Assembly (NCBI GenBank): GCA_008632985.1
Contig: QPGO01000002.1
Location: 744,001 to 808,000 of the forward strand
Length of the DNA: 64,000 nucleotides
From: Psammoneis japonica
Lineage: Eukaryota
Reading direction: 5' to 3'
Below the pieces are notes generated by a model, which was given only the letters and a program-made list of their open reading frames with translations, made no database searches and was not told where the DNA came from. Positions 35,792 to 62,903 of the stretch are shown piece after piece. The translations under genes were made by a program, and so were the position numbers. Numbering within the stretch: the first letter of the stretch is position 1; each line of letters begins with the position of its first letter.

Positions 35792-35796
<5 letters not shown>

Positions 35797-35830
<34 letters not shown>

Positions 35831-36127: not shown

Positions 36128-36989
36128 GCGCACAGCAGCTCGTCAAAGTCGCGGCTGCTTGCTCTGGTTGGTCAAGTTCATGGATGCTGAAAAGGGCACC
36201 ACAGCACATTTTTGCCATGGACCCATTGCCCATTCACTGCCAGATGAGCGCTGCTGCCATGCCTTGCTTGAGCTTGTGCTTGTTGCTGCAGAAGACGTTT
36301 GCTGGTTGCTGCTGCTGCAACAGTGTGAAAGGAAGAAGTTGACATCTGCCAACCCACACACACAGTTGACACTGTTGCCTCTGCTGTTGGACCTCTCTGA
36401 GCCATGCTGCAGTGACAAGAAAATTGGACAAAATGCAAACACCGCTGTGCCGTTGGACCCCCTTGTTGTGTGCATCATGGGCCTGGATGCTGGTGCCTTG
36501 AATGTTGTTGTTGCTGTTGTGTGTCCACACATTGGGCAGTTGCTTGATGACAAAAGCTGTGCTGTGCAAAGTGAAAGGCCAAATCTGCAATGTGCCAAGA
36601 GGCTCTGAGACCTTGTTGTTGCCATGGCTGGAGACCAAAGGCTCTCATCCTCCATGCAGCAGACAGAAAGCAAGCTCACTCAAATCTTTGAGAGCAGCTC
36701 TGTCGCCCAAATGGAGGAGGCCTGTCATTCTCAGAATGACCAGCAAGGCAAGCTGGCAACAAAATGTTGTTGGAGCAGGAATGGCAAGTTGCACTCTCTT
36801 GCAAAACACAAAGAATGAGCTTGCAGAACCAGCAACAATGTCCTCCAAATGCCACACAATGAACACCATCTGCCTCTGCTTTGGCCTGAGCGGCAATGCC
36901 AGGCATCCAAAACACCAAAAAAGCAATGTCTGGCTTTCCCATGGGACATGTGGTTGCAAAGATTGAAAGCATCCAGGCTGGCTTTGCAA

Positions 36990-38376: not shown

Positions 38377-38625
38377 TCAACAGACTGCCTCAATCAAGTG
38401 AAAGGCATCCAGCCAACCCTCACAGTCTCAAACAAATGCAACAATGTGGTCTCATGCTTGCAAACTTTGTGCCAAGTTCATCATGGAGTGCAGCTTGCCA
38501 ATGCCATGTGTGTCACACACTGTGAGTCCAAGATGAGTGTTTTGGTCCATGAAGAGCACATGTTTTGTCTCCTGTGCTGGTTGCAGTTGATGCAAAATTC
38601 CATGATTTCCAATCATTGCTTCTTT

Positions 38626-41600: not shown

Positions 41601-43438
41601 GAAAGATGTGCACAACATGTGTGTGAGGTGTTTGGGAGATGTGTGTGAGATGTGTGTGAAATGTGTGGGAGATGTGTGTGAGGTGTGTGCAACATGTTTG
41701 AAAGGTGTGGAGGACATGTGCAAGATGTGTGTGAGGTGCTTGGGAGGTGTTTGCAAGTTGCGCACAAGGTGCTGCATGTGATGTGTTTGCAAGATGTGTG
41801 CAAAACATGATGTCTGAGGTGTGCAAGCATTGTGCATGAGACATGTGTGAGGTGTTTGCAAAAAGTGTGCAAGATGCATGTGTGAGGTGTTTGCAAGAGG
41901 TGTGTGCAAGATGTGCATGAGATGTGTGCAAGACATGTCACAGGAGATGTGTGTGTGCGATGTGTGAAAAATGTTTGAAAGGTGTGTGAGATGTGCACAA
42001 GACATGTCTGAGGTGTTTGTGAGATGTGCCCAAGACATGTGCAAAGCAAGTGTGGGGTGCATGGGAGATGTGTGTGAGGCATGTGTGAGTTGTTTGCAAG
42101 ATGTGTTCAAAGTGCATGTGAGGTGTTTGCAAGACCACATGGGCTCTCCAGGAAATCGCTGCATTTGCAGCCTGGCATGGGTCATGATTGGCACAAATCA
42201 TGTCAGCCACAACTTGTGCACAGGGCATTTGAAGGATGCACATGAGACCTTTGCAATGTGCTTTCAAGGTGTGTGCATGTTGATGTGTGTGTCACGTGTG
42301 TGGTGTGTTTGCAAGATGTGTGCAAGGTGTGCTTTCAAGATGTCTGCATGCAAGATGTGTGTGCAAGATGTGTGTCACATGTTTGCAAGGTGTGTGCAAA
42401 TTGTTTGTGAGGTGTGCAGGAGTTTTGAGGTGTGTGTGAGCTTGTGAGATGCAGGCAAGATTTCTGCAAGATGTGCACCAGATTTTTGTTCAAGAAGTGT
42501 GTGAGATGTTCGCAGAGTGTGCAAGATGTGTGTTGGGTGTGTTTGGGAAATGTGCGCCCAAGACACATTCAAGGTGTTTGTGAGACGTGTGCATGATGTG
42601 TGCAACACAAGTGCAATGTGTTTGTGAGATGTGTGCAAGATGAGGTGCTTGCAAGATGTGTGCAAATTGTGTGCAAGAGTTGTGCACAAGGCATGTGTGA
42701 GGCCTTTTGCAAGTTCTGCTTGCACAGCGTGCATGACACATGTGTGAGGTGTGAAAGATGTGTGCAACATGTGTGTGAGGTGTTTGGGAGATGTGTGTGA
42801 AATGTGTGTGAGATGTGTGCAAAATGTTTAAAAGGTGTGCGGGGGACATGTGCAAGATGTGTGTGAGGTGTTTGGGAGGTGTTTGCAAGTTGTGTGCAAG
42901 GTTCTGTGTGTGACATGTTTGCAAGATGTGTGCAAGACATGATGTGTGAGGTGTGCAAGCACAGTGCGTGAGACATGTGTGAGGTGTTTGCAAAAAGTGT
43001 GCAAGATGCATGTGTGAGGTGTTTGCAAGAGATGTGTGTGCAAGATGTGCATGAAATGTGTGCAAGACATGTCATGGGAGATGTGTGTGCGTGATGTGGC
43101 ACAACATTTGAAAGATGTGTGAGATGTGCACAAGACATGTCTGAGGTGTTTGTGAGATGTGCACAAGACATGTGCAAAGCAAGTGTGGGGGGCTTGGGAG
43201 ATGTGTGTGAGGCGTGAGTGAGTTGTTTGCAAGATGTGTGCAAGACATGTGGGAGGGGTGTGTGTGTGTGTGCAATGTGTGAAAAATGTTTGAGAGGTGT
43301 GTGAGATGTGCACAAGACATGCCTGAGGTGTTTGCATGCTGTGTGAAGCAAGTGTGCTGTGCTTGGGAGATGTGTGCGAGGCGTGAGTGAGTTGTTTGCA
43401 AGATGTGTTCAAAGTGCATGTGAGGAGTTTGCAAGACC
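38626..43438. repeat. TG-rich satellite block 2 (internally rearranged, with short non-satellite inserts)
   Basis: Same monomer as block 1; 42.2-43.4 kb matches 28.3-29.5 kb. Confidence 0.92.
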
Positions 43439-46400
43439 ACATGGGCTCTCCAGGAAATCATTGCATTTGCAGCCTGGCGTGGGTCATGATGAGCACAAAT
43501 CATGTCAGCCAGCAAGAGGTCAATTGAAAAAAAAAACAGCAGGTTTGGTGCTGCAATGACTTCACAGAGAAGAAGACACTCTTTTTGCATGCACAAAATG
43601 TGGGTCAAAACAAAAAATGTCACTTTCTGGATGAAGCACAGGATCACACCAACAAGCTTCAGAATGAAAAACCTGATCACACATCTTTTTAAATGTGCGG
43701 CACATTTTGAAAAATGCACTCCCGGGCACTCTTTTTCAAGTGCAGAAATTGTGCTTGACTCTTCCTCACAGGAATGTTTTGTGCATGTCTGGGTTTGCAT
43801 TTTGTGAGCTGTCCTTTGGCACACAGAAAAAGTGTGTGTGCACACAGATCCTTGCTTGGACAGAAAGAACCAGCACTCTGGTTGGCTCAATGAATTCCAC
43901 ACAAAATGTCTGGCATTGTTGGGCACAGGAGAGGGGCCAGGAAGCATCAACATTGCCCCTGACAGAGCTGGTCTTGGATCAGCAGCCCAAACACATGGGC
44001 AATCACTGTGGTTTCCCACCCAGTCACAGAAACTTTTCAGAGTGCTTCACACACAACAAGCAGTCTTCTGCAAGCTTGGTGACACAGAGTTTGCAGATGG
44101 AAATGACTTTCATCCAAACCAGAGCCAGAGTGCTCAGGGCAGTCAGCTCTGACAGCCTCAAGCTTGTTGGTGATCTGAAATGCCATGTTGAACAATGTTT
44201 GGCATGACCCAAGTGTGTCATCCCCAAACTCTGCACACATCTTCAAGTCGTGCCACAGCCCAGTGTCTGCTTGGACTCAACAGCATCTCTTGCCCAACCT
44301 GAAAAAGATCATCTGAGTTGCTGGCTTGAGAGTTGAAAGATGTGCAGCAGTTGTCATGATGTCTTTTGTTCATCAATGTCAAAAGATCATTGCAAAACAC
44401 AGGCTGCTGTGGACAGACTCTTGAAGGCAATGCATTCACACTGAATCTTTTGAGGTTGGCAACATTCTGCTGCATGCAAGAAGGTGCCCTGCCAAAGACA
44501 GATGAAACAATGCCAAACCTCCTTCAAATTCTGGGTCTTGATGCTCATGGTTTCAAGCTTGGCAATCTAAAAGACTTTGTTTGGCAAGGCATGGTGCAAC
44601 AGAACACATCATCCCCGAGCTCTGTGCTGGCATCTGCAAGCCCCACCATGTCTGAATGTCTGCTCAGATGCGACAATGCCTTGATCCCAAAGAAGGTCTG
44701 CCAGCTGATTGTCCGCCATTGGCTTGAATTGAGAGATGTGCAGCAGTTGTCATTGTCTTCTTGTTCATGTTGAAAAATTGTTGCAAACCACAAGCCACTC
44801 TGGACAGACCTCATGAAGCAATGCTGTCCAAATCTGTTTGATGTGTTGGCAACATTTTGTGCTGGAGCCATTGTGACTGCCTTGTGAGGCTTCAATTTCA
44901 CAGAGATCTGTCATTTCCACTTCATCCCAAAGGGCTCCCTGAAGAGCTGCTCATGCAAGGTGATTTTCTCCTTTGCACATGGAAGCTGGAGGCCATTTGC
45001 TTCTACATTGATCTTCAGAGAGGAAGCACCCAGATGACATCTGCAACACATTGAGCCAAGCTGGATGAGAGTGGGGAACCTGTTCCCACCTTCGAAGGCA
45101 TCAAGCAACAAAAGACAGAACCCTGCTTCATGGGTTGAGACAGAAACAGAGAATTTGTGTGTGCCAGCTTGAGCAAAGATGATGAAGAGAACGAAAGAAA
45201 AGGTTGCACCACAGAGATCCAGCTGTGTGCTGATGATGCAATCAAACAAGCCAAAGCACACCATTGCAAGTGAGTTGAACAGTTTCAGCAAATTTGATTG
45301 TCCAGTTGTTGTTGAAATGCAAGCAAGCCTGTCTTGCAAGGTGGAAGGCAAGAATGTCCCCAAAACACACATGCTGCTTGTGCTCCCCGGTTGGAACATG
45401 ACTCCTTCTAGAATTGCAACAACAAAGGTGGATTGGCACTGTGCTTTTGCACAGATGTGCAATGCCATTGGAAGGAATTGGCTGATTGACATGCCAACTC
45501 GCCTCTGCTGTTTGATCCTTCAATTCTTGTGACTTTTTCCCCATGTGGCAAGTGCCAGAATCAGATTTGGATTTGGGGTGCAACATGTGTCTGGATGGAG
45601 AATGACGCAAGGGATGTTTGTTCCTTGCATCTTCAGCACGCCACACATTTGGTCTTGGAGAAGACTGTCACATCAACTTCTTGGGTGTTGTTTTACCCAG
45701 GCTCCTCTCAATGTGCCATGAAGTGATGTGCCGCAATGAAGAGGCGCAGCCAGGACATCAATTTAGAAAAAGAGCGCACTGCAACTGTGTGAACAATGGA
45801 GCTTCTTGGACAAGTTGCTTGCTTTGTTGCAACTTTCTGTGAAACTGCTTGGTGCAAGTGAGTGATGAAGGTTCATTCCCACACTAGAATCAAGACACTT
45901 GTGTGAATGTTTCTAGAGTTTTCAATTGTCCAGTCCTTCTCTGCCAGCAGTGAAAAACCTGCTTTGTCTGGACTGCAAGAACCCAACTCAAACTGGTCCT
46001 CGAAACAGGAACCCCACTGGCACAAAACAATGATGCAGCAAAAGACAATGAAGTGCCAAAAGGAAAAGGAAAGTGGAAATGCCAGCCCCAAGCCTTGAAG
46101 ATGAGTGGGAAACCATCTGCCAACAGACACAAGAATGAAGCCAAGAACTGCCATGGAAAAAGAAATGGGAATCATGGAGGACAGCACAGAGGCAAGCAAA
46201 GAGGAAAGAGAAGCAACAGGCAAAACCAGAGGCAAAACTCCTCCACCAAGGCACCATGCTCCCCATCAAAATTGCCAAAAAAAATCCAATCGCTGCTGCA
46301 TCAGAGTCCATGGTTTCATGCCAAATCCTGACGCCCCCCCTGTGGGAAAATGCAGCAATGGCTGTTGGCAAGATGAAAGCCATGGCACACTTCAACCACC

Positions 46401-47348
46401 TGGACAATGTGTCTTGCCATGACCTCTGTGCAAAGCTGCAACCACTGCCCGGCATCTTGGACAAACGACCAGGGCCAGCATCGCAAATGCTCAGGAGACA
46501 GTGAGCCACAGACACTGTGATCTTTGCCCTTTGACTCTTGTCACATTCTTCCACAGGCTTGTGCATGCATGCAAGGACAGCAGCAACTGGCTTGTCTTTG
46601 CACTCTTCTTGAAATGGTGCCTTGTTCAGCAGCTCTGAAACTTGCAGCAGGCATTTCCCAGCTGCGGCAACAAGCTTGTTCCAAACTTTGTCATTAAAAT
46701 CCTTTCACTCTGGCTTCCACACACTGATTTCCTTGTCCCTGATTTCAAGTGGGTGCACTCACAGCCATTGAATCCTTTGCTGTTTTTTTTGCAGGACAGA
46801 CCATTGTCTGTGGATGCCAAGATCACAGCGTGGGCACAGTGCACATTTTTGTTCAGCTGCTTCATCCATGAGAATGGCTTCTCAAGCACCCTTGGTGTGT
46901 CTTTCAGCTTCAAGCTGTGTTCCTGAGCAAAGCCTCTGTTGAGCTGGTCAAAAACAAGGTCCCAGCACAACTTTCTGTCTTTGCTTTTGTTGTGATTGAC
47001 CTCATCCAATGCTCCAGTGATGGCATCAACAAATCCATCAATGGAGTTGCCATGGGTGGACTGATCAACCTCTGATTGTGAGGTGTCAACATTCAGCAAT
47101 CAACAGACTGCCTCAATCAAGTGAAAGGCATCCAGCCAACCCTCACAGTCTCGAACAAATGCAACAATGTGGCCACATGCTTGCAAACTTTGTGCCAAGT
47201 TCATCATGGAGTGCAGCTTGCCAATGCCATGTGTGTCACACACTGTGAGTCCAAGATGAGTGTTCTGGTCCATGAAGAGCACATGTTTTGTCTCCTGTGC
47301 TGGTTGCAGTTGATGCAAAATTCCATGATTTCCAATCATTGCTTCTTT

Positions 47349-49504
47349 GTGTGAGCAAGAGGTGTGAGATGTGTGTGCAAGACATGTGTGAAATGTGTGC
47401 AAGGTGTTTGCAACATGTGTGCAAAATGTTTGAAAGGTGTGTGGGAGGTTTGAGCAAGACACAAGCAAGTTGTTTGTGGGGCCTGTGCAAAATGTGTGTG
47501 CAAAGTGTTTTTGCATGTGTGCAAGGCATGTGCAAGGCATGTGTGAAATGTGTTCAAGGTGTGTGCAAGATGTGTGAAAAGTGTTTGAAAGGTGTGTGGG
47601 AGATGTGTGCAACACGTGTGTGTGTCTCTGTGGTGTTTGTGAGATCTGTGCAAGACGTGTGTGTGTCACATTTGCAAGTTGTTTGTGAGATGTGGCAAGA
47701 TGTGTGTGAGGTGTTTGCAAGACATGTGCATGGTGTGAGTTGTGCTCAAGATGTGCGCGAGACATTTGCAAGATGTCTGCAAGATGTGTGTGATGCATTT
47801 GTGCAGTGTGTTTGCCAGATGTGTGTGAGATGTGTGCAAGGTGTTTGCAAGATGATGTGTGCCAGAAGATGTGTGAGTGCATGTGAGTTGCACAACAGAT
47901 GTGTGTGGGTCATTGGGGGGGATGTGTTTGAGCCATGTGCAAGGTGTTTGGGAGATGTGTGCACAATGTGTGCCAAACATGTGTGTCGTGTGTTTGCAAG
48001 ATGCATGCAATGTGCTTGCAAGAGGTGTGCATGATGTGTGCAAGATGTGTGTGAGGTGTTTGTGGGTCATTTGGGAGATGTGCGCAAGACCTTTGCAGTG
48101 TGTTTGCAAGATGTTTGCATGATGACATCTGTGACGTGTTTTCAAGATGTGTGCAAAGTGCTTGCAAAATGTCTGCTTGACACATGCAAGATGAGTGTCA
48201 AATGTGTGCAAGGTGTTTGCAAGGTGTGTGCAAATTGTTTGTGAGGTGTGAAGGAGTTTTGAGGTGTGCATGAGCTTGTGAGATGTGGGAAAGTTGGGTC
48301 ATGATTGGCACAAATCATGTCAGCCACAACTTGTGCACAGGGCATTTGAAGGATGCACATGAGACCTTTGCAATGTGCTTTCAAGGTGTGTGCATGATGA
48401 TGTGTGTGTCACGTGTGTGGTGTGTTTGCAAGATGTGTGCAAGGTGTGCTTTCAAGATGTTTGCATGCAAGATGTGTGTGCAAGATGTGTGTCAAATGTG
48501 TGCAAGGTGTTTGCAAGGTGTGTGCAAATTGTTTGTGAGGTGTGCAGGAGTTTTGAGGTGTGTGTGTGAGCTTGTGAGATGTGGGCAAGTTGTCTGCAAG
48601 ATGTGTGCCAGATTTTTTGTGCAAGAGGTGCATGTGAAATGTGTGTGAGATGTTGTTTGCAGAGTGTGCGAGATGTGTGTTGGGTGTGTTTTGGAAATGT
48701 GTGCACAAGACACATTCAAAAAGTGTGTGCATGAGATGTGTGCATGATGTGTTCAACACAAGTGCAGTGTGTTTGTGAGATGTGTGCAAGATGAGGTGCC
48801 TGCAAGATGTGTGCAAATTGTGTGCAAGAGTTGTGCACAAGGCGTGTGTGAGGCCTTTTGCAAGTTCTGCTTGCACCAGTGTGCATGACACATGTGTGAG
48901 GTGTGAAAGATGTGTGCAACATGTGTGTGAGGTGTTTGGGAGATGTGTCAGAGATGTGTGTGAAGTGTGTGTGAGATGTGTGCAAAATGTTTGAAAGGTG
49001 TGTGGGGGAAATGTGCAAGATGTGTGTGAGGTGTTTGGGAGGTGTTTGCAAGTTGTGTGCAAGGTGCTGTGTGTGATGTGTGTGCAAGATGTGTGCAAGA
49101 CATGATGTGTGAGGTGTGCAAGCATTGTGCATGATTCATGTGTGAGGCATTTGCAAAAAGTGTGCATGAGGCATGTGTGAGGTGTTTGCAAGAGATGTGT
49201 GTGCAAGATGTGCATGAGATGTGTGCAAGACATGTCACGGGAGACGTGTGTGCGCGATGTGTGAAAAATGTTTGAAAGGTGTGTGAGATGTGAGATGTGC
49301 ACAAGACATGTCTGAGGTGTTTGTGAGATGTGCACAAGACATGTGCAAAGCAAGTGTGGGGTGCATGGGAGATGTGTGTGAGGCATGAGTGAGTTGTTTG
49401 CAAGATGTGTTTAAGACATGTGGGAGATGTGTGTGTGCAATGTGTGAAAAATGTTTGAAAGGTGTGTGAGATGTGCGCAAGACATGTGTGAAGCAAGTGT
49501 GCTG
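47349..49504. repeat. TG-rich satellite block 3
   Basis: Same monomer; the start is near-identical to block 2 at offset 8723. Confidence 0.92.
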
Positions 49505-49719
49505 GGAGTCGCCTCAGAGATGCATTCTTGAATGACTTTGCAAAATTTTGCAATGTCCGCATTGCAACATTGTTGGCCAATTGGACTGCACAAAATTTAG
49601 CCTGTTGCCCATCACACATGTTGGCAATGAATGATTGCTCTCTGCAAACGAATGAGCTCATTTGCACAGCTTTGCAGCTTTCGACAACAAGAAAGTCATT
49701 GCAGTGTTTATCGCCAAAT

Positions 49720-49857
49720 AACTTTCAACAACTTTTTGTTGAAAGTCGTCACTTTCAACACTTTTTGTTGAAAGACGTAACTTTCAACAACTTTTCGTTG
49801 AAACACGCAACTTTCAACACCTTTTTGTTGAAAGACGTAACTTTCAACAACTTCAAC
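49720..49857. repeat. 30-bp tandem array of GTTGAAAG-N6-CTTTCAAC palindromes (left)
   Basis: About 4.5 units read directly. Confidence 0.9.
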
Positions 49858-50900
49858 AGAAAACTTGTGGGCACGAAAATCTGATTTGAAAAGCGACGTC
49901 ATCTAAGACAAGCATGCATGACCGACATGCATCGTTGGGTGCAGTGTTTGCTGCAGCACTTTACTCAGCAAACTGCAGCGAGCACAATGAAGCGAGCAGA
50001 CGGTGTCCACTTTACGGCATGACATCTCAACGATGCTTGCACCGTTTTCCCCATTTCTTTTTTCATTGTTGGGAGCAATTGCACAATGCATCCTTCTGGG
50101 TTGGTCCCATTGTGTGTCATTGAGAATTGTGGATTTCTGTTTTGTTTGAAACCTCAAAGCAATTTCAATTTTTTTTAATGGCGCGCATGAAGTGTGCAGG
50201 TCAGTGCCATTCGATTCTCAGTGGTGCTGTCACCAATGTTCTCACTTCTAAGTCCTTTGTTGATTCTAATGAGACGTGACGTGTTGAGCCGTGTCCACAC
50301 CTTGGTGTGACTGACGGAGTTGCTTGTGACTTGGCACTTTTGTCCAAGGATGAAACCACCTGAGACAGGGCCCTGCAGCATGCTGGGACCCAGACTCGGA
50401 ACGGTGGATGGGATTGCTGGGCTCAGAGGATGGAGCAGCCGATGGTTTGGCACTGGGATGATTCTCACTTAGAGCTGTAGACAGCGCCTGACCACGCACT
50501 GGGTGAGATCGGAGGCAGATCACTGCCAGGTGGGAGCTTTGCTTGGTGCGAAGTGCGTTGGACGGCGGCTCACTTGGAGCCATCGAAGGTGCTCCACTGC
50601 CAGAAGATTTCAAGAAATTGACAATTCTGAAACTGCTGCAGCTGAAAATTCTGAAACTGCCACACTTTACACTCTGAAACTGCCGCCATGAACTTTGAAA
50701 CTGCCACCACAAATTGTCAAAAAACTGCTTCTGCTAAAAACCACCAAACCAGCACTGAACTGCCAAGCCAACTTCACGCCGCTCTTTTAGATTTTGGCAA
50801 GGTGTGCATCGCTCATGCTGTTCTCATCACGATCTTTGACTTTTGTGTTGCCCGACTGCAGTGCAACCCCAAAAACAATGTCTCCACACGTGTCGATGTG

Positions 50901-51068
50901 GTTTTTGTTGAAAGATGTAACTTTCAACAGATTTTTGTTGAAAGATCTAACTTTCAACAGATTTTTTTTGAAAGATGCAACTTTCAACAGATTTTTGTTG
51001 AAAGTTCTAACTTTCAACAACTTTTTTGTTGAAAGATCTAACTTTCAACAACTTTTTGTTGAAAGTCG
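50901..51068. repeat. 30-bp tandem array of GTTGAAAG-N6-CTTTCAAC palindromes (right)
   Basis: About 5.5 units read directly. Confidence 0.9.
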
Positions 51069-51388
51069 GTTGTCCGTTGAGTTGTGACCGTAAACTGAAC
51101 ATGCAACATTTGTTGCTGGACATGTTCACATTAGGAAAGGGCAGCAGCATTGTCTTCAACGGACATGTGTTGCAGCGTGCAAAAATGTCCATTTCACCAG
51201 AGTCGTCAGTGGGAATCAGATGCACCGCGCCTGCATGCACGAGCGCGACGGGAGGGACAGCTTCGACTTTCAACAGAATTGAGGCAACTCCCTGTGCTTG
51301 GGAGATGTGTGTGAGGTGTGAGTGAGTTGTTTGCATGATGTGTTCAAAGTGCATGTGAGGTGTTTGCAAGACCACATGGGCTCTCCAG

Positions 51389-52674
51389 CACCATGCGGGA
51401 AAACGGCTCAAATGCGCACATGTTTGCATTCACAACGGACATGAGCAAACACCACACCAAGTGGCATTTGAGAGGGGTCACCCCCTTGTTTGTCCTGGAA
51501 TTGCCGCGCGATTTGAACAAGGCGATTTGTCAGTGTTTGTTTTTGAATGCAAAAATTGTCCACATTCCCACCTGATCGTGCACAAAAACGAAAACCATCG
51601 GCACCGCGATCAAAGCACAACAATGATGCAATCATTGACATTGCTTAAAAACGCAGCGCTCCACCTCCGCACTGTCATCTGACACTGATCATGCAATGCA
51701 TGGCGAGCATGATGCCAATGAGAGTGCAGAGCCAGCACACTTCTGTTGCATGCTTGTGGCTCACAGTTTTCATCACAGTGAAGCACGGAGAAATTCAGAA
51801 AAAATCATGCAAATCATGAGCCATTTGGCCAAATTCAAGCTAAAAAAGCAGCGACCAACCACTCTCAACAGTCATGACTGAGAGTTCCAGTCTTGGCTTT
51901 TTTGACCGAAAGTTTGAGCAATTGTGTCAAACTTGCATCCCCACTTGCTCAAACTTGGCAAGTTTGAGCAATTGCTCAAACTTGCCGCAAGTTTGAGCAC
52001 ATGCTCAAACTTCGAGATTGCTCAAACTTGCGCAAGTTTGAGCAATTGCTCAAAATGCACAAAAAACAAAAAATCCGTGTTGGCATGACGATGCATGGGG
52101 CTGTGACAACAACATAAAGATGGTCTAATGCCGGCACTTGCTGATGATCTGTTTGATGTGTTTTTGACTTGAAACAACAAATGTCAATGCTGAGGCACAT
52201 GTCAATGCCAAGGCACAGTTTGAAAATGTTTTTGATTGAAACAAAAGACAAAATGTTGTCACACGACACTGTGCATTTTTGTGCGTGAGTTTGCATCACA
52301 TGTCTTTCATTGGAATGTTGGGCTTCTTGAAGGCATTGTTGTGGAGAAAATGTCGTTCGTGTCACCATGGTGCGATGGTTGCAATTTTGTTGTTTGTCGC
52401 CAACGGCTGCAAAACCTCATTTTTCCGTTGGATTTACTTTGCACTGACAGCTGCATGCAGTGCAAGTGGCAAGTGCTCAAATTTGCACAAAGTTTGAGCA
52501 ATTCCTCAAACATTGAGCCCCGTTTTCTCAAACATGACATGTTTGAGCAAAAGGTGGCGTTTCAACAAAGCGTGATTCAAGTTGCACATCACAGTGGCCA
52601 CAACGGTGACACATGTTTTTTCAAAATGTTGTCATGCAAAATTCACACGTTTTGAGCAAAATGCCCACACGGTG
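51389..52674. mobile_element. Non-autonomous CACTA/CMC-like TIR element (~1.29 kb), 3-bp CAG TSD, internal GCTCAAA/TTTGAGC repeats
   Basis: CACCATGCGGG (51389) and CCCACACGGTG (ending 52674), with imperfect inverted similarity over ~48 bp. CAG at 51386-51388 and 52675-52677. The empty site ctctc-cag-gaaatc occurs at 29531, 40877, 43446 and 58586. Confidence 0.85.
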
Positions 52675-55600
52675 CAGGAAATCATTGCATTTGCAGCCTG
52701 GTGTGGGTCATGATTGGTGCAAATCATGTCAGCCAGCAAGAGGTCAATTGAAAAAAAAACAGCAGGTTTGGTGCTGCAATGACTTCACAGAGAAGAAGAC
52801 ACTCTTTTTGCATGCACAAAATGTGGGTCAAAACAAAAAATGTCACTTTCTGGATGAAGCGCAGGATCACACCAACAAGCTTCAGAATGAAAAACCTGGT
52901 CACATGTCTTTTTAAATGTGTGGCACATTTTGAAAAATGCACTCCCGGGCACTGTTTTTCAAGTGTAGAATCTGTGTTTGACTCTTCCTCACAGGAATGT
53001 TTTGTGCATGCCTGGGTTTGCATTTTGTGGGTTGTCCTGTGGCACACAGAAAAAGTGTGTGTGCACACAGATCCTTGCTTGGACAGAAAGAACCGGCACT
53101 CTGGTTGGCTCAATGAATTTCACAAAAAATGTCTGGCATTGTTGAGCACAGGAGAGGGGGCAGGAAGCACCAGCATTGCCCCTGACAGAGCTGATCTTGG
53201 ATCAGCAGCCCAAGCACATGGGCAATCACTGTGGTTTCCCACCCAGTCACAGAAACTTTTCAGAGTGCTTCACACACAACAAGCAGTCTTCTGCAAGTTT
53301 GGCAACACAGAGTTTGCAAATGGAAATGACTTTCATCCAAACCAGAGCCTTGAGAGTTGAAAGATGCGCGGCAGTTGTCAGGCCACCATAGACAGACTCT
53401 TGAAGGCAGTGCATTCACTCTGAATCTTTTGAGGTTGGCGACATTCTGCTGCATGCAGCAAGGTGCCCTGCAGAAAACAGATGAAACAATGCCAAACCTC
53501 CTTTAAATTCTGGGTTTTGATGCTCATGGCTTCCAGCTCCTTGGCAATCTAAAAGACTTTGTTTGGCAAGGCATGGTGCAACAGAACACATCATCCCCAA
53601 ACTCTGTGCTGGCATCTGCAAGCCCTGCCATGTCTGAATGTCTGCTGAGATGTGACAATGCCTTGATCCCAAAGAAGGTCTGCCAACGGATTGTCTGCCA
53701 TTGGCTTGAATTGAGAGACATGCTGCAGTTGCCATTGTCTTCTTGTTCATGTTGAAAGATTGTTGCAAACCACAAGCCACTCTGGACAGACCTCATGAAG
53801 CAGTGCTGTCCAAATCTGTTTGATGTGTTGGTGACATTTTGTGCTGGAGCCATTGTGGCTGCCTCACGAGGCTTCAACTTTGCAGAGATCTGTCATTTCC
53901 AGTTCATCCCGAAGGGCTTCCTGAAGAGCTGCTCATGCAAGGCATGCAAGGTGACTTTCTCCTTCACACATGGAAACCAGAGGCCATTTGCTCAGATGAC
54001 ATCTGCAACACATTGAGTCAAGCTGGATGAGAATGGGGAGCCTGTTCCCACTTGCAAAAGCATCAAGCAACAAAAGACAGAACCCTGCTTCATGGGTTAA
54101 GATGGAAACAGAGATTTTGTTTGTGCCAGCTTGAGCAAAGATGATGAAGAGAACGAAAGAAAAGGTTGCACCACAGAGATCCAGCTGTGTGCTGATGATG
54201 CAATCAAACAAGCCAAAGCACACCATTGCAAGTGAGTTGAACAGTTTCAGCAAATTTGATTGTCCAGTTGTTGTTGAAATGCAAGCAAGCCTGTCTTGCA
54301 AGGTGGAAGGCAAGAATGTCCCCAAAACACACATGCTGCTTGTGCTCCCCGGTTGGAACATGACTCCTTCTAGAATTGCAACAACAAAGGTGGATTGGCA
54401 CTGTGCTTTTGCACAGATGTGCAATGCCATTGGAAGGAATTGGCTGATTGACATGCCAACTCGCCTCTGCTGTTTGATCCTTCAATTCTTGTGACTTTTT
54501 CCCCATGTGGCAAGTGCCAGAATCAGATTTGGATTTGGGGTGCAACATGTGTCTGGATGGAGAATGACGCAAGGGATGTTTGTTCCTTGCATCTTCAGCA
54601 CGCCACACATTTGGTCTTGGAGAAGACTGTCACATCAACTTCTTGGGTGTTGTTTTACCCAGGCTCCTCTCAATGTGCCATGAAGTGATGTGCCGCAATG
54701 AAGAGGCGCAGCCAGGACATCAATTTAGAAAAAGAGCGCACTGCAACTGTGTGAACAATGGAGCTTCTTGGACAAGTTGCTTGCTTTGTTGCAACTTTCT
54801 GTGAAACTGCTTGGTGCAAGTGAGTGATGAAGGTTATTCCCACACTAGAATCAAGACACTTGTGTGAATGTTTCTAGAGTTTTCAATTGTCCAGTCCTTC
54901 TCTGCCAGCAGTGAAAAACCTGCTTTGTCTGGACTGCAAGAACCCAACTCAAACTGGTCCTCAAAACAGGAACCCCACTGGCACAAAACAATGATGCAGC
55001 AAAAGACAATGAAGTGCCAAAAGGAAAAGGAAAGTGGAAATGCCAGCCCCAAGCCTTGAAGATGAGTGGGAAACCATCTGCCAACAGACACAAGAATGAA
55101 GCCAAGAACTGCCATGGAAAAAGAAATGGGAATCATGGAGGACAGCACAGAGGCAAGCAAAGAGGAAAGAGAAGCAACAGGCAAAACCAGAGGCAAAACT
55201 CCTCCACCAAGGCACCATGCTCCCCATCAAAATTGCCAAAAAAAATCCAATCGCTGCTGCATCAGAGTCCATGGTTTCATGCCAAATCCTGACGCCCCCC
55301 CTGTGGGAAAATGCAGCAATGGCTGTTGGCAAGATGAAAGCCATGGCACACTTCAACCACCCAGACAATGTGTCTTGCCATGACCTCTGTGCAAAGCTGC
55401 AACCACTGCCCGGCATCTTGGACAAACGACCAGGGCCAGCATCGCAAATGCTCAGGAGACAGTGAGCCACAGACACTGTGATCTTTGCCCTTTAACTCTT
55501 GTCACATTCTTCCACAGGCTTGTGCATGCATGCAAGGACAGCAGCAACTGGCTTGTCTTTGCACTCTTCTTGAAATGGTGCCTTGTTCAGCAGCTCTGAA

Positions 55601-56309
55601 ACTTGCAGCAGGCATTTCCCAGCTGCGGCAACAAGCTTGTTCCAAACTTTGTCATTAAAATCCTTTCACTCTGGCTTCCACACACTGATTTCCTTGTCCC
55701 TGATTTCAAGTGGGTGCACTCACAGCCATTGAATCCTTTGCTGTTTTTTTTGCAGGACAGACCATTGTCTGTGGATGCCAAGATCACAGCATGGGCACAG
55801 TGCACATTTTTGTTCAGCTGCTTCATCCATGAGAATGGCTTCTCAAGCACCCTTGGTGTGTCTTTCAGCTTCAAGCTGTGTTCCTGAGCAAAGCCTCTGT
55901 TGAGCTGGTCAAAAACAAGGTCCCAGCACAACTTTCTGTCTTTGCTTTTGTTGTGATTGACCTCATCCAATGCTCCAGTGATGGCATCAACAAATCCATC
56001 AATGGAGTTGCCATGGGTGGACTGATCAACCTCTGATTGTGAGGTGTCAACATTCAGCAATCAACAGACTGCCTCAATCAAGTGAAAGGCATCCAGCCAA
56101 CCCTCACAGTCTCGAACAAATGCAACAATGTGGCCACATGCTTGCAAACTTTGTGCCAAGTTCATCATGGAGTGCAGCTTGCCAATGCCATGTGTGTCAC
56201 ACACTGTGAGTCCAAGATGAGTGTTTTGGTCCATGAAGAGCACATTTTTTGTCTCCTGTGCTGGTTGCAGTTGATGCAAAATTCCATGATTTCCAATCAT
56301 TGCTTCTTT

Positions 56310-57475
56310 GTGTGAGCAAGAGGTGTGAGACATGTGTGCAAGACATGTGTGAAATGTGTGCAAGGTGTTTGCAACATGTGTGCAAAATGTTTGAAAGGTG
56401 TGTGGGAGGTTTGAGCAAGACACAAGCAAGTTGTTTGTGGGGCCTGTGCAAAATGTGTGTGCAAAGTGTTTTTGCATGTGTGCAAGGCATGTGCAAGGTG
56501 TGTGCAAGATGTGTGCAAAGTGTTTGAAAGGTGTGTGGGAGATTTGTGCAACACATGTGTGTGTCTCTGTGGTGTTTGTGAGATCTGTGCAAGACGTGTG
56601 TGTGGCACATTTGCAAGTTGTTTGTGAGATGTGGCAAGATGTGTGTGAGGTGTTTGCAAGACATGTGCAAGGTGTGAGTTGTGTTCAAGATGTGCATGAG
56701 ACATTTGCAAGATGTTTGCAAGATGTGCGTGATGCATTTGTGCAGTGTGTTTGCCAGATGTGTGTGAGATGTGTGCAAGGTGTTTGCAAGATGATGTGTG
56801 CCAGAGGATGTGTGAGTGCATGTGAAATGCACAACAGATGTGTGTGGGCATTGGGGGGGATGTGTTTGAGCCATGTGCAAGGTGTTTGGGAGATGTGTGC
56901 ACAATGTGTGCCAAACATGTGTGTCATGTGTTTGCAAGATGCACGCAATGTGCTTGCAAGAGGTGTGCATGATGTGTGCAAGATGTGTGTGAGGTGTTTG
57001 TGGGTCATTTGGGAGATGTGTGCAAGACCTTTGCAGTGTGTTTGCAAGATGTTTGCATGATGGCATCTGTGACATGTTTTCAAGATGTGTGCAAAGTGAT
57101 CGCAAAATGTCTGCTTGACACACGCAAGATGAGTGTCAAATGTGTGCAAGGTGTTTGCAAGGTGTGCGCAAAATGTTTGTGAGGTGTGCATGAGCTTGTG
57201 AGATGTGGGAAAGTTGGGTCATGATTGGCACAAATCATGTCAGCCACAACTTGTGCACAGGGCATTTGAAGGATGCACATGAGACCTTTGCAATGTGCTT
57301 TCAAGGTGTGTGCATGATGATGTGTGTGTCACGTGTGTGGTGTGTTTGCAAGATGTGTGCAAGGTGTGCTTTCAAGATGTCTGCATGCAAGATGTGTGCA
57401 CAAGATGTGTTTCAAATGTGTGCAAGGTGTTTGCAAGGTGTGTGCAAATTGTTTGTGAGGTGTGCAGGAGTTTTG

Positions 57476-57519
<44 letters not shown>

Positions 57520-58578
57520 TGGTGTGTGTGAGCTTGTGAGATGTGGGCAAGTTGTCTGCAAGATGTGTGCCAGATTTTTGTGCAAGAGGTGCATGTGAAA
57601 TGTGTGTGAGATGTTGTTTGCAGAGTGTGCGAGATGTGTGTTGGGTGTGTTTTGGAAATGTGTGCACAAGACACATTCAAAAAGTGTGTGCATGAGATGT
57701 GTGCATGATGTGTTCAACACAAGTGCAGTGTGTTTGTGAGATGTGTGCAAGATGAGGTGCCTGCAAGATGTGTGCAAATTGTGTGCAAGAGTTGTGCACA
57801 AGGCGTGTGTGAGGCCTTTTGCAAGTTCTGCTTGCACCAGTGTGCATGACACATGTGTGAGGTGTGAAAGATGTGTGCAACATGTGTGTGAGGTGTTTGG
57901 GAGATGTGTCAGAGATGTGTGTGAAGTGTGTGTGAGATGTGTGCAAAATGTTTGAAAGGTGTGCGGGGGAAATGTGCAAGATGTGTGTGAGGTGTTTGGG
58001 AGGTGTTTGCAAGTTGTGTGCAAGGTGCTGTGTGTGATGTGTGTGCAAGATGTGTGCAAAACATGATGTGTGAGGTGTGCAAGCATTGTGCATGATTCAT
58101 GTGTGAGGCATTTGCAAAAAGTGTGCAAGATGCATGTGTGAGGTGTTTGCAAGAGATGTGTGTGCAAGATGTGCATGAAATGTGTGCAAGACATGTCATG
58201 GGAGATGTGTGTGCGTGATGTGGCACAACATTTGAAAGATGTGTGAGATGTGCACAAGACATGTCTGAGGTGTTTGTGAGATGTGCACAAGACATGTGCA
58301 AAGCAAGTGTGGGTTGATTGGGAGATGTGTGTGAGGCATGAGTGAGTTGTTTGCAAGATGTGTTTGAGACATGTGGGAGATGTGTGTGTGTGTGTGCAAT
58401 GTGTGAAAAATGTTTGAAAGGTGTGCGAGATGTGTGCAAGACATGTCTGAGGTGTTTGTGAGATGTGCGCAAGAAGACATGTGTGAAGCAAGTGTGCTGT
58501 GCTTGGGAGATGTGTGCGAGGCATGAGCAAGTTGTTTCCAAGATGTGTTCAAAGTGCATGTGAGGAGTTTGCAAGACC
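56310..58578. repeat. TG-rich satellite block 4 (includes a (TG)n expansion at ~57477-57530)
   Basis: Same monomer as the other blocks. Confidence 0.92.
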
Positions 58579-61048
58579 ACATGGGCTCTCCAGGAAATCA
58601 TTGCATTTGCAGCCTGGCGTGGGTCATGATGAGCACAAATCATGTCAGCCAGCAAGAGGTCAATTGAAAAAAAAAACAGCAGGTTTGGTGCTGCAATGAC
58701 TTCACAGAGAAGAAGACACTCTTTTTGCATGCACAAAATGTGGGTCAAAATAAAAAATGTCACTTTCTGGATGAAGCACAGGATCACACCAACAAGCTTC
58801 AGAATGAAAAACCTGATCACACATCTTTTTAAATGTGCGGCACATTTTGAAAAATGCACTCCCGGGCACTCTTTTTCAAGTGCAGAAATTGTGCTTGACT
58901 CTTCCTCACAGGAATGTTTTGTGCATGTCTGGGTTTGCATTTTGTGAGCTGTCCTGTGGCACACAGAAAAAGTGTGTGTGCACACAGATCCTTGCTTGGA
59001 CAGAAAGAACCAGCACTCTGGTTGGCTCAATGAATTCCACACAAAATGTCTGGCATTGTTGGGCACAGGAGAGGGGCCAGGAAGCATCAACATTGCCCCT
59101 GACAGAGCTGGTCTTGGATCAGCAGCCCAAACACATGGGCAATCACTGTGGTTTCCCACCCAGTCACAGAAACTTTTCAGAGTGCTCCACACACAACAAG
59201 CAGTCTTCTGCAAGCTTGGTGACACAGAGTTTGCAGATGGAAATGACTTTCATCCAAACCAGAGCCAGAGTGCTCAGGGCAGTCAGCTCTGACAGCCTCA
59301 AGCTTGTTGGTGATCTGAAATGCCATGTTGAACAATGTTTGGCATGACCCAAGTGTGTCATCCCCAAACTCTGCACACATCTTCAAGTCGTGCCACAGCC
59401 CAGTGTCTGCTTGGACTCAACAGCATCTCTTGCCCAACCTGAAAAAGATCATCTGAGTTGCTGGCTTGAGAGTTGAAAGATGTGCAGCAGTTGTCATGAT
59501 GTCTTTTGTTCATCAATGTCAAAAGATCATTGCAAAACACAGGCTGCTGTGGACAGACTCTTGAAGGCAATGCATTCACTCTGAATTTTTTGATGTTGGC
59601 GACATTCTGCTGCATGCAAGAAGGTGCCCTGCAGAAAACAGATGAAACAATGCCAAACCTCTTTCAAATTCTGGGTCTTGATGCTCATGGCTTCAAGCTT
59701 GGCAATCTAAAAGACTTTGTTTGGCAAGGCATGGTGCACAACAGAACACATCATCCCCAAGCTCTGTGCTGGCATCTGCAAGCCCCACCATGTCTAAATG
59801 TCTGCTCAGATGTGACAATGCCTTGATCCCAAAGAAGGTCTGCCAGCAGATTGCCCGCCATTGGCTTGAATTGAGAGATGTGCAGCAGTTGTCATTGTCT
59901 TCTTGTTCATGTTGAAAAATTGTTGCAAACCACAAGCCACTCTGGACGGACCTCATGAAGCAATGCTGTCCAAATCTGTTTGATGTGTTGGCAACATTTT
60001 GTGCTGGAGCCATTGTGACTGCCTTGTGAGGCTTCAATTTCACAGAGATCTGTCATTTCCACTTCATCCCAAAGGGCTCCCTGAAGAGCTGCTCATGCAA
60101 GGTGATTTTCTCCTTTGCACATGGAAGCTGGAGGCCATTTGCTTCTACATTGATCTTCAGAGAGGAAGCACCCAGATGACATCTGCAACACATTGAGCCA
60201 AGCTGGATGAGAGTGGGGAACCTGTTCCCACCTTCGAAGGCATCAAGCAACAAAAGACAGAACCCTGCTTCATGGGTTAAGATGGAAACAGAGAATTTGT
60301 GTGTGCCAGCTCAAGCAAAGATGATGAAGAGAATGAGAGAACAGGTGGCACCACAGAGATCCAGCTGTGTGCTGATGACGCAATCAAACAAGCCAAAGTG
60401 CACCATTGCAAGTGAGTTGAACAGTTTCAGCAAATTTGATTGTCCAGTTGTTGTCAAAATGCATGCAAGCCTGTCTTGCAAGGTGGAAGGCAAGAACGTT
60501 CCCAAAACAGACTGGCCACTTGTGCTCCCTGGTTGGAGAACATGACTCCTTTTAGAATTGCAACAATGAAGGTGGATTGGTGCTGTGCTTTTGCACAGAT
60601 GTGCAACCCCATTGGAAGGAATTGGCTGATTGACGTGCCAACTTGCCTCTGCCGTTTGATCCTTTGATTCTTGTGACTTTTTTTCCATGCAGCGAGTGCT
60701 GGAAAATCAAATTTGGATTTGCCTCTGCCATTTGATCCTTTGATTCTTGTGACACTTTGTTCCCCACGCGGCAAGTGCTGGAATCAGATTTGGATTGGAG
60801 GTGGTGCAATCCATGTCCGGATGGAGAATGATGCAAGGGATGCTTGTTCCTTGCATCTTCAGCATGCCACACATTTGGTCTCAGAGACTGTCACATCAAC
60901 TTCTTGGGTGTTGTTTCACCCAGGCTCCTCTTGATGTGCCATGAAGTGATGCGCCATGATGAAGAGGCGCAGCAGCCAGGACAGCAATTTAGAAAGAGTG
61001 CACCGCAACTGTGAACAATGCTTGGATGAGTTGCTTGCTTTGTTGCAA

Positions 61049-61526
61049 CTTTCTGTGAAACTGCTTGGTGCATGTGAGTGATGAAGGATCATTCCTGCTC
61101 TAGAATCAAGGTGCTTGTGTGAATGTTTCTTGAGTCTTCACTTGCTTGCACTGCAGGTGCAGTCATTTGGAAGTGAGCTCACTGCTGGCAATCTTGTTGA
61201 TGACATCAAATGTTGAATGGACTGATGTTTTTGGGCTCGGGGGTTCAAGACAACCTGCAATTGAAAACTCTAGAAACATTCATACATGTATCTCGATTCT
61301 AGTGTAGGAATGAACCTTATCACTCACGCGCACCAAGCAGTTTCACAGAAAGGCAGTGCACAGTGTGATGAAAAGCGTCAATCGCATTGGTGGCTCAAGT
61401 CTGCAAAAAAGAAAACGAGATGGAGCCCGGTGCAGCTCGACTCCCTAACCCCAGTCCTTCTCTACCAGTAAAAAACCTACTTTATCTGGACTACAAGAAC
61501 CCAACTCAAACCGGTGCTCGAAACAG
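61049..61526 (+). mobile_element. Inverted repeat plus 5' end of the Penelope-like element, truncated at ~61526; right ~250 bp largely unmutated
   Basis: Aligns with 31993-32471; translates MEPGAARLPNPSPSLPVKNLLYLDYKNPTQTGARNR. Confidence 0.8.
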
Positions 61527-61569
61527 AAATAAGCACCACAAAGGGGACTTCAGACTTGAGGCATTTCCT

Positions 61570-62532
61570 CTATACCTCATCGCTGTCATCATCCGTGGAT
61601 TGTTCTTCCTGAGCGCCGGCTACGCTTGTTGCGGGAGTTCGACCCAATCCCTTGGCGTCCCATACAAAGCCTTCGTTGGAAAGCTTCATAATCTTTTCTG
61701 CTGTAATGTACGTTTTCTCCCCCCTTAGATATTTCTTGTAATACTGACGTTGTTCCGCTACCCAGGAACCCAGTCCACCAGGATTGTGCTGTGGAACGTA
61801 GGCATGCCCGTGTGCTGCCTTGTACTGTTTGAATTCCTCGAATCGGGTTTCCCAACTCTTGCGGTTTTGGCATGCACCTTCAGGCATACGATTCCCAGCC
61901 AGCCAAACAAATCCCAAGTCTTCGAGTTCTTTCTGTCGCTCATCGGTGAGGGAAGTTTTTTTACCGCTCATCTTGTCCTTGTAGGCGCGTCGCACGTGAC
62001 CAACCCATTTTCCTAAGGCAGTACCGTTCACAGGAACCTTCACATGGCCGTGCTGTGCATGGAACGCTTTTAGCGCCTTCATACGGTCTTCCCAAGGGGT
62101 GAATCCCCCGTTTGCTTTAAACACGAATTCAGCTTCGGTAAGCTTCACGAGCCTATGCGCATCGAGTGTCGACTCTTCTCCGTTTTTCAACTTCCTGTAT
62201 TCCTGTCGAATATTCTGAACCCAGTAACTCAGTTTCGTTTTTTGGTCACACGGGACTCTGGTGTGTCCGTGGACCCTCTTAAATTCAGCCAACTCCTCAA
62301 GGCGCTTATCGAACCTCTCCTCGTGTTTGCTCTTCTTTTTCGGTTTTTCTTGTTTCTTCTTGTTTGGTTTTTCTCGTTTCTTCTTGTTTGGTCCTCTCCG
62401 ATCTCTGTCAATTTTGGGATCGTAGTCCCTGTCGTCCGGATCATCCGCTGTGCTACCCATCTTCCTCTTCTTACCATTACCCGACTTACGGCGTGAACAC
62501 TCCCTCGTCTTTTTCGCTGCTTCCATTGTCAC
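61570..62532 (-). CDS. Helicase-associated (HA) domain protein, three HA repeats; true 5' end probably further upstream
   Basis: Three copies of (F/W)E.R...L..F...HGH..VP......L..WV...R..Y..........L...R...L....FVW. Possible upstream intron at ~62675-62748. Confidence 0.85.
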   Translation of the reverse strand: MTMEAAKKTRECSRRKSGNGKKRKMGSTADDPDDRDYDPKIDRDRRGPNKKKREKPNKKKQEKPKKKSKHEERFDKRLEELAEFKRVHGHTRVPCDQKTKLSYWVQNIRQEYRKLKNGEESTLDAHRLVKLTEAEFVFKANGGFTPWEDRMKALKAFHAQHGHVKVPVNGTALGKWVGHVRRAYKDKMSGKKTSLTDERQKELEDLGFVWLAGNRMPEGACQNRKSWETRFEEFKQYKAAHGHAYVPQHNPGGLGSWVAEQRQYYKKYLRGEKTYITAEKIMKLSNEGFVWDAKGLGRTPATSVAGAQEEQSTDDDSDEV

Positions 62533-62903
62533 TCTTCTTGTTATTGCGTTTGGAATGATCCCTCTACAGATATGCGAGTCGACGCTCGGTGCCTCACCGT
62601 CAAAGTCAAGCAGCGATGCTCATTGTGGTGATGTTCAGTTGTGCATCGCTGAGGTTGCTGGCATTCCCGAGCCTCTGCACATATAAATTTATTAATTTAT
62701 ATATAAATATATATATAGAATGGAAAGATGGGGAGTGTATGTACGTACCCAAGACCCTGCGGGGGAAGGACAGACATCAGCTAGCAAAACTCATGCATGC
62801 GCGCGCGGCACGTACGCTTTACGTAAGGTATCGTACTCCGCACTCTAGCTAACTACATAGTATCTAACTCTACTTTCCATCTTGGATCTACTCTACCTAC
62901 TCT

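Follow-up and report, generated by a model that had tools for sequence, protein, structure and literature searches.

How did an interval of about 36 kb on a diatom chromosome come to be almost free of TpA dinucleotides, in which direction did the change run, and what set its limits? We examined these questions in a window of 64,000 nucleotides from Psammoneis japonica (contig QPGO01000002.1 of assembly GCA_008632985.1, positions 744,001 to 808,000 of the forward strand); all coordinates below refer to this window. A first-pass annotation of the same DNA had flagged a short segment at 61270-61526 as the unmutated edge copy of a duplicated sequence, with TA and CG at positions where an inner homologue carries TG. 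We find that this segment borders a domain that fills the whole interval between two genes, and in which TpA has nearly vanished and CpG is strongly reduced. The best overall explanation, to which we assign a probability of roughly 80%, is a heritable, near-saturating mutation of TpA and CpG throughout the domain between the two genes, with the edge copy spared.

24800..61250, no strand assigned: hypermutated domain, with 0-2 TpA per 500 bp over most of its length, CpG at about 0.2 of the flank density, TG/CA odds of 1.8-2.1 and a GC content of about 0.47

The number of TpA dinucleotides per 500 bp, 10-40 in the flanks, is 0-2 over most of the domain and reaches 7 in an island at 49,500-52,700, whereas CpG falls from about 29 per 500 bp in the flanks to about 3. 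The TA odds within the domain are 0.0-0.06. The GC content is 0.45-0.49 both inside the domain and in the flanks. When the satellite arrays are set aside, TA makes up 0.32% of the dinucleotides in the domain vs 3.57% in the flanks and CG 1.17% vs 5.78%, a combined loss of 7.86 percentage points. TG and CA together account for 14.28% in the flanks and 22.66% in the domain; this gain of 8.38 points balances the loss and supports a change from TA and CG to TG and CA. The domain-to-flank ratios of all other trinucleotides stay within 0.72-1.87. Both boundaries are sharp to about 50-120 bp. At the right boundary (approximately 61,240-61,283), the last 127 bp before 61,271 contain no TA and a single CG, and the flank density holds from 61,283 on; at the left boundary, the composition changes between approximately 24,730 and 24,850.

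The flagged segment of about 270 bp is the outermost end of a locally duplicated segment and lies just outside the right domain boundary. Four copies of it, or of parts of it, are present in the window.

61257..61529, no strand assigned: outer right-edge copy, essentially unmutated, with 12 TA, 10 CG and a flank-like composition; it contains the flagged 61270-61526
32201..32474, no strand assigned: inner mutated homologue of the right-edge copy, with 1 TA and 6 CG
45860..46008, no strand assigned: third copy, made up of a part collinear with 32396-32470 (45930-46008) and an inverted copy of 61257-61326 (45860-45928), the latter with CA at the three-state site described below
54820..54969, no strand assigned: fourth copy, with the same structure as the copy at 45860

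In the gap-free alignment of 61441-61525 with 32386-32470, nine of the 85 positions differ. At 61447, 61464, 61470, 61479, 61484 and 61493, the outer copy has A and the inner copy has G, each preceded by T; at 61512 and 61519, CG of the outer copy is replaced by TG; and at 61444, C stands opposite T. All six TA dinucleotides of the outer copy in this interval are therefore changed, and the probability that nine changes in 85 positions would take in all six TA adenines is 1.9e-7. The first-pass annotation had described this interval as six of six TA to TG, both CG to TG and little else, and our alignment bears it out, with the C/T position as the only other difference. It had also noted that a peptide LLYLDYKN becomes LLCLDCKN. 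The translation is arithmetically right, but a real coding frame is unsupported: the frame runs antisense to the gene on the right of the domain, just downstream of that gene, and the open reading frames (ORFs) of the inner homologues gave no Pfam match at E<=0.05.

The same pattern extends over the full homologous end. Between 61257-61529 and 32201-32474, 30 of the 273 aligned bases differ; 11 of the 12 TA sites of the outer copy are changed in the inner one (10 to TG and 1 to CA), as are 7 of its 10 CG sites (6 to TG and 1 to CA). In the reverse direction, the inner copy has CG opposite TG or CA at three sites, and TA opposite TG or CA at none within the 273 aligned bases. At all five of the flagged sites that they cover, the copies at 45930 and 54891 have TG. 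The outer copy has 44.0 TA per kb and a TA/AT ratio of 0.92, close to the 46.9 per kb and 0.87 of the adjoining unique flank, vs 3.6 TA per kb in the inner homologue. Because 32201-32474 lies inside the domain and is rewritten while its sister copy lies outside, the pair yields the polarity TA to TG. The third and fourth copies have a rearrangement of their own: an inverted piece of 70-75 bp, homologous to 61257-61326 and 32201-32270, stands at 45860-45928 and 54820-54889 directly before the collinear part, and the intervening stretch of about 300 bp (the equivalent of 61144-61451) is missing.

The left edge offers a second and separate pair of copies.

24378..24800, no strand assigned: outer left-edge copy, which takes in codons 1-58 of the gene for a CCA-adding enzyme and the region upstream of it; it keeps 7 TA and 27 CG (aligned dinucleotides)
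34561..35010, no strand assigned: inner mutated homologue of the left-edge copy, with no TA left

All seven TA sites of the outer left copy are changed in the inner one (five to CA, one to TG and one to TC), together with 23 of its 27 CG sites (9 to TG, 12 to CA and 2 otherwise). Wherever TA stands opposite TG or CA at either edge, TA belongs to the outer copy (17 of 17 differences, 11 at the right edge and 6 at the left; sign test, 7.6e-6). The 19 TA sites of the two outer copies divide into 17 that became TG or CA, one that became TC and one that is unchanged. CG likewise belongs to the outer copy in 28 of the 32 differences between CG and TG or CA.

Two sites give the polarity without any appeal to composition. 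The three-state site CCTT[TA]TC reads TA in the 61 copy but TG in the 32 copy, and CA in both the 45 and the 54 copy, a distribution that takes two steps from an ancestral TA and three from TG or CA. At the second site, CTAG is common to the 61, 45 and 54 copies and has become CTGG in the 32 copy alone, which points to TA as the ancestral state. The direction of change was from TA to TG or CA, and from CG to TG or CA. The first-pass interpretation of the edge copy as the unmutated state thus finds support in its position relative to the domain, the left edge, the three-state site, the CTAG site, the dinucleotide balance and the context-dependent survival described next. The first-pass annotation had named intact family members with TG at these sites as the finding that would make TA the derived state; the other copies in the window have TG there, yet each is part of the mutated domain and cannot count as intact, so that this condition does not overturn the polarity.

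What does the process recognize? Surviving TA dinucleotides were counted by flanking base (R, purine; Y, pyrimidine) in the non-satellite part of the domain, with the composition of the flanks as an approximation of the unmutated state.

RTAY: observed 1, expected from the flanks 274.5, model 1.8
YTAY: observed 12, expected from the flanks 275.5, model 13.9
RTAR: observed 13, expected from the flanks 187.9, model 9.5
YTAR: observed 53, expected from the flanks 141.9, model 53.8

A model with only two parameters, in which the adenine of each strand survives independently with a value of 0.082 before a pyrimidine and 0.616 before a purine, fits all four context classes. The attack unit is the A in 5'-TAY-3' (equivalently the T in 5'-RTA-3'), which is lost about five times faster than that in TAR, and the two strands are hit independently. 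AAY, CAY and GAY are undepleted, which shows the need for a 5' T. Such a multiplicative dependence of TA survival on context is explained only by a loss process. CpG survival in the domain is 0.20 with a weak effect of the preceding base (TCG 0.145, ACG 0.164, CCG 0.219 and GCG 0.305), as expected for decay of methylated CpG. The relative rates of the two components can be judged in a less mutated part of the domain.

49492..52674, no strand assigned: less mutated island, with a CG survival of 0.54, RTAY observed 0 times against 35.4 expected and YTAR observed 15 times against 18.3 expected

This survival pattern indicates that TAY sites decay faster than CpG. The island, which retains 27 TA and 100 CG, has no full-length paralogue in the window; it contains palindromic 30-bp tandem repeats at 49719-49853 and 50902-51065, and a piece of 97 bp (51292-51388) that is 92-96% identical to sequence at the ends of the satellite arrays.

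The changes at the flagged edge fall largely on one strand. Plus-strand changes (A to G and C to T, both formally deaminations of that strand) account for 10 of 11 TA sites and 6 of 7 CG sites, with a binomial P of 0.0007 for 16 of 18. The first-pass annotation had proposed either processive, strand-coordinated mutation or simply the TAY context rule as the cause of this run. The context rule is real, yet it leaves the run unexplained: under a context-only model, the probability of at least 10 TG among 11 is 0.011, and two sites at this edge (GTAG and GTAA) changed on the strand that the rule disfavours. Strand coordination is not seen in any of the other lists tested, however. When 10 lineage lists, drawn from six copy pairs, were put to Wald-Wolfowitz runs tests, z ranged from -1.77 to +0.96, with |z| below 1 in nine of them (two further lists were too short); the left edge is mixed, with 5 CA and 1 TG at TA sites and 9 TG and 12 CA at CG sites. 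On these grounds we reject, for the present, the idea that the mutation is processive and strand-coordinated in general, and the same-strand run, which lies in a stretch chosen because it was striking, is suggestive at most.

When did the mutations occur, and were they directed at repeats? The interval from about 24,800 to 61,250 is a block of segmental duplicates, in which a 5.7-kb unit and four 11-bp satellite arrays are found.

27300..29520, plus strand: 11-bp satellite block with the unit TGTGTGCAAGA, one of four; the others are at 38620-43450, 47340-49500 and 56300-58580

In the block of four copies formed by 29536-32088 and its partners, 27 dinucleotide sites show only TG and CA, 34 retain CG in at least one copy and 8 retain TA; the remainder of the 2190 ungapped columns holds 50 transitions and 32 transversions or multi-state columns. 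Because inner copies differ by TG vs CA at one and the same dinucleotide, the ancestor there was TA or CG after the duplication, and mutation went on after the duplications. The copy at 43451-45928 matches the TG, CA and CG states of the 29536 copy as far as a point equivalent to about 31,221, beyond which it matches those of the 52675-54889 copy; it is a mosaic formed by recombination or gene conversion among the repeat copies. Two pieces that are single-copy in the window, 32919-34560 and 36993-37729, are mutated as fully as the repeats. Since these unique pieces are mutated and the outer duplicates are spared, the process follows location and not homology, with uniqueness judged within the window. 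Part of the domain is unassembled: at 35793-36127, a (TG)19 run is followed by a scaffold gap of 297 N.

The satellite TGTGTGCAAGA makes up a third of the domain and has higher-order periods of 22, 33 and 35 bp and a GC skew of up to +0.5. We considered this skew as a sign of strand-biased mutation and rejected it, the skew being a property of the amplified 11-bp unit. Because the unit lacks TA and its period is not a multiple of three, all three minus-strand frames remain open for 250-450 codons and produce spurious ORFs rich in His, Thr and Cys. Metagenome matches to a 19-base satellite word (21 loci) were judged to be chance: their TA odds are 0.34-1.02, none is TpA-free, and at most two short cases are related arrays.

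If the process follows location, what defines the location? The domain is enclosed by two genes.

23028..24554, minus strand: flanking gene on the left, encoding a tRNA nucleotidyltransferase (CCA-adding enzyme) with a PolyA_pol head domain
61570..62619, minus strand: flanking gene on the right, encoding a protein with three HA (helicase-associated) domains

The left boundary lies about 180-300 bp upstream of the start codon of the CCA-adding-enzyme gene, and the right boundary about 310 bp beyond the stop codon of the HA gene, so that the flagged piece is the 3' flank of the latter. The closeness of both boundaries to gene ends suggests that the domain occupies the space between two transcription units. 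Among 8000 candidates scored, the CCA-adding enzyme (23031-24554) has 1271 relatives at E<=0.001, the best with 57% identity, and all of those bearing an organism name are from diatoms. For the HA protein, the nearest Atlas clusters are mostly Bacillariophyta, with weak scores of 0.81-0.82.

These observations can be combined in the following scheme. A domain of chromatin size has undergone heritable change of TpA to TpG or CpA and of CpG to TpG or CpA, the two targets being self-complementary dinucleotides; the direction of this change, its confinement to the domain, its target rule and its continuation after the duplications are shown by the sequence. The TpA component could arise if a TadA/ADAT2-like enzyme directed at silenced DNA deaminated adenine there to inosine; by analogy with the known target context of these enzymes, we give this step slightly less than an even chance. 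The CpG component would reflect the usual decay of methylated CpG, with the same silenced chromatin as its setting, which the weak flanking effect makes likely. The active transcription units of the two flanking genes may protect their own DNA and so set the domain edges, a plausible arrangement given where the boundaries fall.

A different origin of the pattern has to be considered at the level of the data themselves. Some base callers for long reads are known to misread modified bases, and the gap of 297 N marks the sequence as a draft assembly; modified bases in a heterochromatic region might have been misread so that TA and CG were called as TG and CA. The k-mer contigs of a short-read sequencing run, X1, contain 85% of the sampled words of 58600-62600 and cover every bin of 58600-63600. 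Their word depth is 57.5 where the flank is unique and reaches 150-340 over the repeats, in approximate agreement with copy number in the window. No contig of another run, X3, fell on this interval, and no RNA run was listed among those containing its words. One X1 contig of 1539 bases spans 61387-62895 without a difference. Five of the six other pieces listed have 0-2 differences each, the residual differences matching paralogous copies, and a second X1 contig of lower depth carries the variants of the 32 copy at 61417-61447. Although X1 is possibly the source sample of the assembly and not an independent specimen, the match excludes an assembly or consensus error; this exclusion does not extend to a peculiarity of the strain. 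With a 57-fold word depth, the X1 contigs reproduce the edge exactly. In addition, the TG and CA states track the genealogy of the copies, including the switch near 31,221, as inherited mutations do and a read-level artefact would not. We therefore regard an artefact as very improbable.

The reverse polarity deserves the same attention. If the TA of the 61 copy were derived, by a process resembling repeat-induced point mutation (RIP) that changed C to T or G to A at CpA and TpG in the edge copy, the TG shared by the other copies would be ancestral. TG is indeed common to three of the four copies at all five alignable sites, one strand carries 10 of the 11 changes, as it would after a single RIP event, the edge copy has a TA/AT ratio of 0.92, and diatoms encode DNMT4 proteins related to fungal RID (PMC9998398, in the part of that source bearing on these proteins). 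Such a process would also have had to make seven changes from TG or CA to CG in the same 273 bp, which RIP does not do, and the three-state and CTAG sites polarise to an ancestral TA. Moreover, the left edge repeats the pattern with a TA-bearing copy that is the 5' end of a functional gene, the composition of the edge copy is that of the neighbouring unique flank, and 36 kb of TpA-free DNA would be left unexplained. This reversal is accordingly given hardly any weight. Even less credence is due to the view that the domain is foreign or specialised DNA whose freedom from TA and CG is intrinsic, through selection or donor bias. It would account for the absence of any recognisable protein family and for the third of the domain that consists of an 11-bp satellite, but 32201-32474 and 34561-35010 are copies of local, normal sequence from which they differ almost only by TA or CG to TG or CA, and the domain copies that differ by TG vs CA at the same site require a TA or CG ancestor after duplication. 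Another chemistry within the same domain and direction of change is unlikely but carries more weight than these: the thymine of 5'-RTA-3' may be modified, for instance to 5-hydroxymethyluracil or 5-formyluracil by a TET/JBP-type enzyme, and then mispair with G to give T to C. TET and JBP enzymes hydroxylate thymine, and 5-formyluracil mispairs with G. The data define the motif TAY/RTA but leave either base of the pair as the point of attack; TpA and CpG are alike in being self-complementary pyrimidine-purine steps, and the same oxidase acting on 5-methylcytosine could add to the loss of CpG. Against thymine chemistry, the matches listed in a literature search for 5-hydroxymethyluracil with diatoms concern dinoflagellates by title, and the sole experimentally observed TpA hypermutation, in the alga Bigelowiella natans, is interpreted by its authors as deamination of A in the main text of their preprint (bioRxiv 10.64898/2026.01.13.699255).

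Several points weigh against heritable mutation of a silent domain as set out above. We infer both the deaminase step and the role of transcription units as boundaries. At the flagged sites TG is common to all three inner copies, and parsimony within the family alone cannot root those five sites. A change from GC to AT is present as CpG loss, unlike in B. natans, and no viral or foreign origin was detected, again unlike in that alga (0 of 52 domain ORFs above the Pfam cut-off, although heavy mutation could hide such an origin). The flanks are largely coding and the domain has no recognisable coding sequence, so the absolute survival fractions are approximate; many surviving TA are common to paralogous copies, and their counts are not independent. 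The contrast of about 100-fold between RTAY and YTAR is unaffected by these two caveats. The analysis extends over the 64-kb window, and both the uniqueness of such a domain in the genome and the repetition of the single-copy pieces elsewhere lie beyond that scope.

The content of the domain was searched for recognisable families. Among the 52 domain ORFs of at least 110 amino acids, none scored above the curated Pfam cut-off, and six sub-threshold matches (E 0.0045-0.047) are at chance level; three domain ORFs searched separately gave no match either. Rfam at its gathering thresholds gave no match in the whole window, and an Atlas look-up of a domain ORF of 283 amino acids (low recognition of 823, best score 0.85) returned no family.

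Outside the domain, the window is gene-dense with long uninterrupted reading frames, and PUB, ArfGap plus PH, PolyA_pol-head and HA domains were found. An uninterrupted frame of 1814 codons on the plus strand (3433-8877) shows weak repeated matches to winged-helix families (Mrr_N and HTH_45) and includes a 1-kb tandem duplication, 4112-5091 vs 5087-6039, with 88% identity. At 9078-10522, in the left flank of normal composition, three tandem units of 514 bp are 98-99% identical, young repeats that show no loss of TpA or CpG. An open frame of 1279 codons on the minus strand (14300-18139) has no Pfam match and lies in a region with a strongly negative AT skew.

Which known system does the domain resemble? 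RIP of Neurospora and other fungi and the TCG-type RIP-like process of Microbotryum and other Pucciniomycotina (PMC3318451, by title) share with it the dense transitions in a block of repeats, the dinucleotide context, the sharp edges and the inactivation of coding sequence, and the basidiomycete form also has a CpG to TpG component. However, RIP makes TpA from CpA and TpG and lowers the GC content, whereas here TpA is destroyed and the GC content is unchanged; RIP also mutates both duplicates, whereas here the outer copies are spared and DNA that is unique in the window is mutated. Fungal RIP was rejected as the process, because two of its defining features, the gain of TpA and the mutation of both duplicates, are absent. 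Many diatoms have a DNMT4 related to fungal RID whose function is unknown, and diatom transposons are methylated by DNMT5, as described in the relevant part of PMC9998398. Methyl-CpG decay, as in vertebrates, plants and diatom transposons, agrees with the domain in the change of CG to TG or CA with a weak flanking preference, but it covers one of the two components only, and TAY is lost here faster than CpG.

Two families of adenine deaminases act in a related context. The substrate of TadA/ADAT2 in tRNA-Arg(ACG) presents U33-A34 followed by a pyrimidine. These enzymes and the base editors derived from them favour an A after T or U with a 3' pyrimidine, and the typical recoding would be Tyr (TAY) to Cys (TGY), both in line with our observations; their natural substrates, however, are tRNA loops and not 36 kb of chromosomal DNA. 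The preferred 3' neighbour of ADAR is G. Hyper-editing by ADAR through retro-copies would resemble the domain in the change of A to G and the preference for a 5' U or T, but here the 3' neighbour is C or T and both DNA strands are hit site by site. Copies of local DNA are affected in place and on both strands, so that the pattern can arise without an RNA intermediate. Literature searches that covered RIP in diatoms, the depletion of dinucleotides and hypermutation by deaminases, with most subscription journals outside their coverage, yielded no TpA-erasing hypermutation in diatoms.

The closest likeness is to the chlorarachniophyte B. natans, as reported in the main text of a preprint by Mettrop et al. 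(bioRxiv 10.64898/2026.01.13.699255, 2026). In mutation-accumulation lines of this alga, 231 of 302 nuclear point mutations fell in an integrated giant-virus (NCLDV) region and a virophage region, and 230 of these 231 were A to G or T to C, all on TpA, at a rate of about 6e-7 per site per generation and in some lines only. The authors proposed an ADAT2-like DNA adenine deaminase acting on silent integrated viral regions, and cited DNA editing by amphioxus and trypanosome ADAT2. A term search of the main text found no treatment of diatoms, CpG, 3' or trinucleotide context or gene boundaries. As far as that main text goes, the two systems share the change of TpA to TpG or CpA depending on the strand, discrete regions with normal neighbours, and a long-term footprint of TpA depletion with CpA and TpG enrichment in clusters. 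A single-copy region was mutated in B. natans, so that homology was not the driver, and pieces that are single-copy in our window were mutated likewise. Both organisms are marine algae of the stramenopile-alveolate-rhizarian (SAR) assemblage. The main text also sets the limits of the likeness: de novo mutation was measured there, whereas only a fixed end state is seen here; there is almost no change from GC to AT there, whereas here CpG is depleted about 5-fold with 28 changes of CG to TG or CA at the edges; and the targets there are viral, whereas no viral or transposon domain was found here.

To date, a single preprint on a single organism has described targeted A:T to G:C hypermutation at TpA, and the window shows the end state after completion of the process in a different major lineage, the diatoms. 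Diatoms contribute a large share of marine primary production. Tentatively, and by analogy with B. natans, diatoms may possess a chromatin-guided, TAY-specific adenine-editing defence that acts on silent DNA between transcription units; the activity of the same TpA signature in a rhizarian alga would then imply an ancient system spanning the SAR supergroup. If this were true, DNA editing would serve immunity or silencing by a mechanism separate from those of fungal RIP and animal APOBEC, and at saturation it would erase all Tyr codons and, of the three stop codons, TAA and TAG. Such domains yield long spurious ORFs without Tyr and defeat homology searches, but they can be found genome-wide by a scan of TpA relative to the sum of TpG and CpA. 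Beyond what the main text on the mutation-accumulation lines contains, the diatom domain adds a control of polarity at both ends, the rule that TAY is lost about five times faster than TAR with the two strands independent, boundaries at gene ends and the co-occurrence of CpG decay. On this comparison, the domain looks like a member of the B. natans type of TpA hypermutation and not of RIP: it has the same signature, carried near to saturation in another lineage, with CpG decay added and no recognisable viral target.

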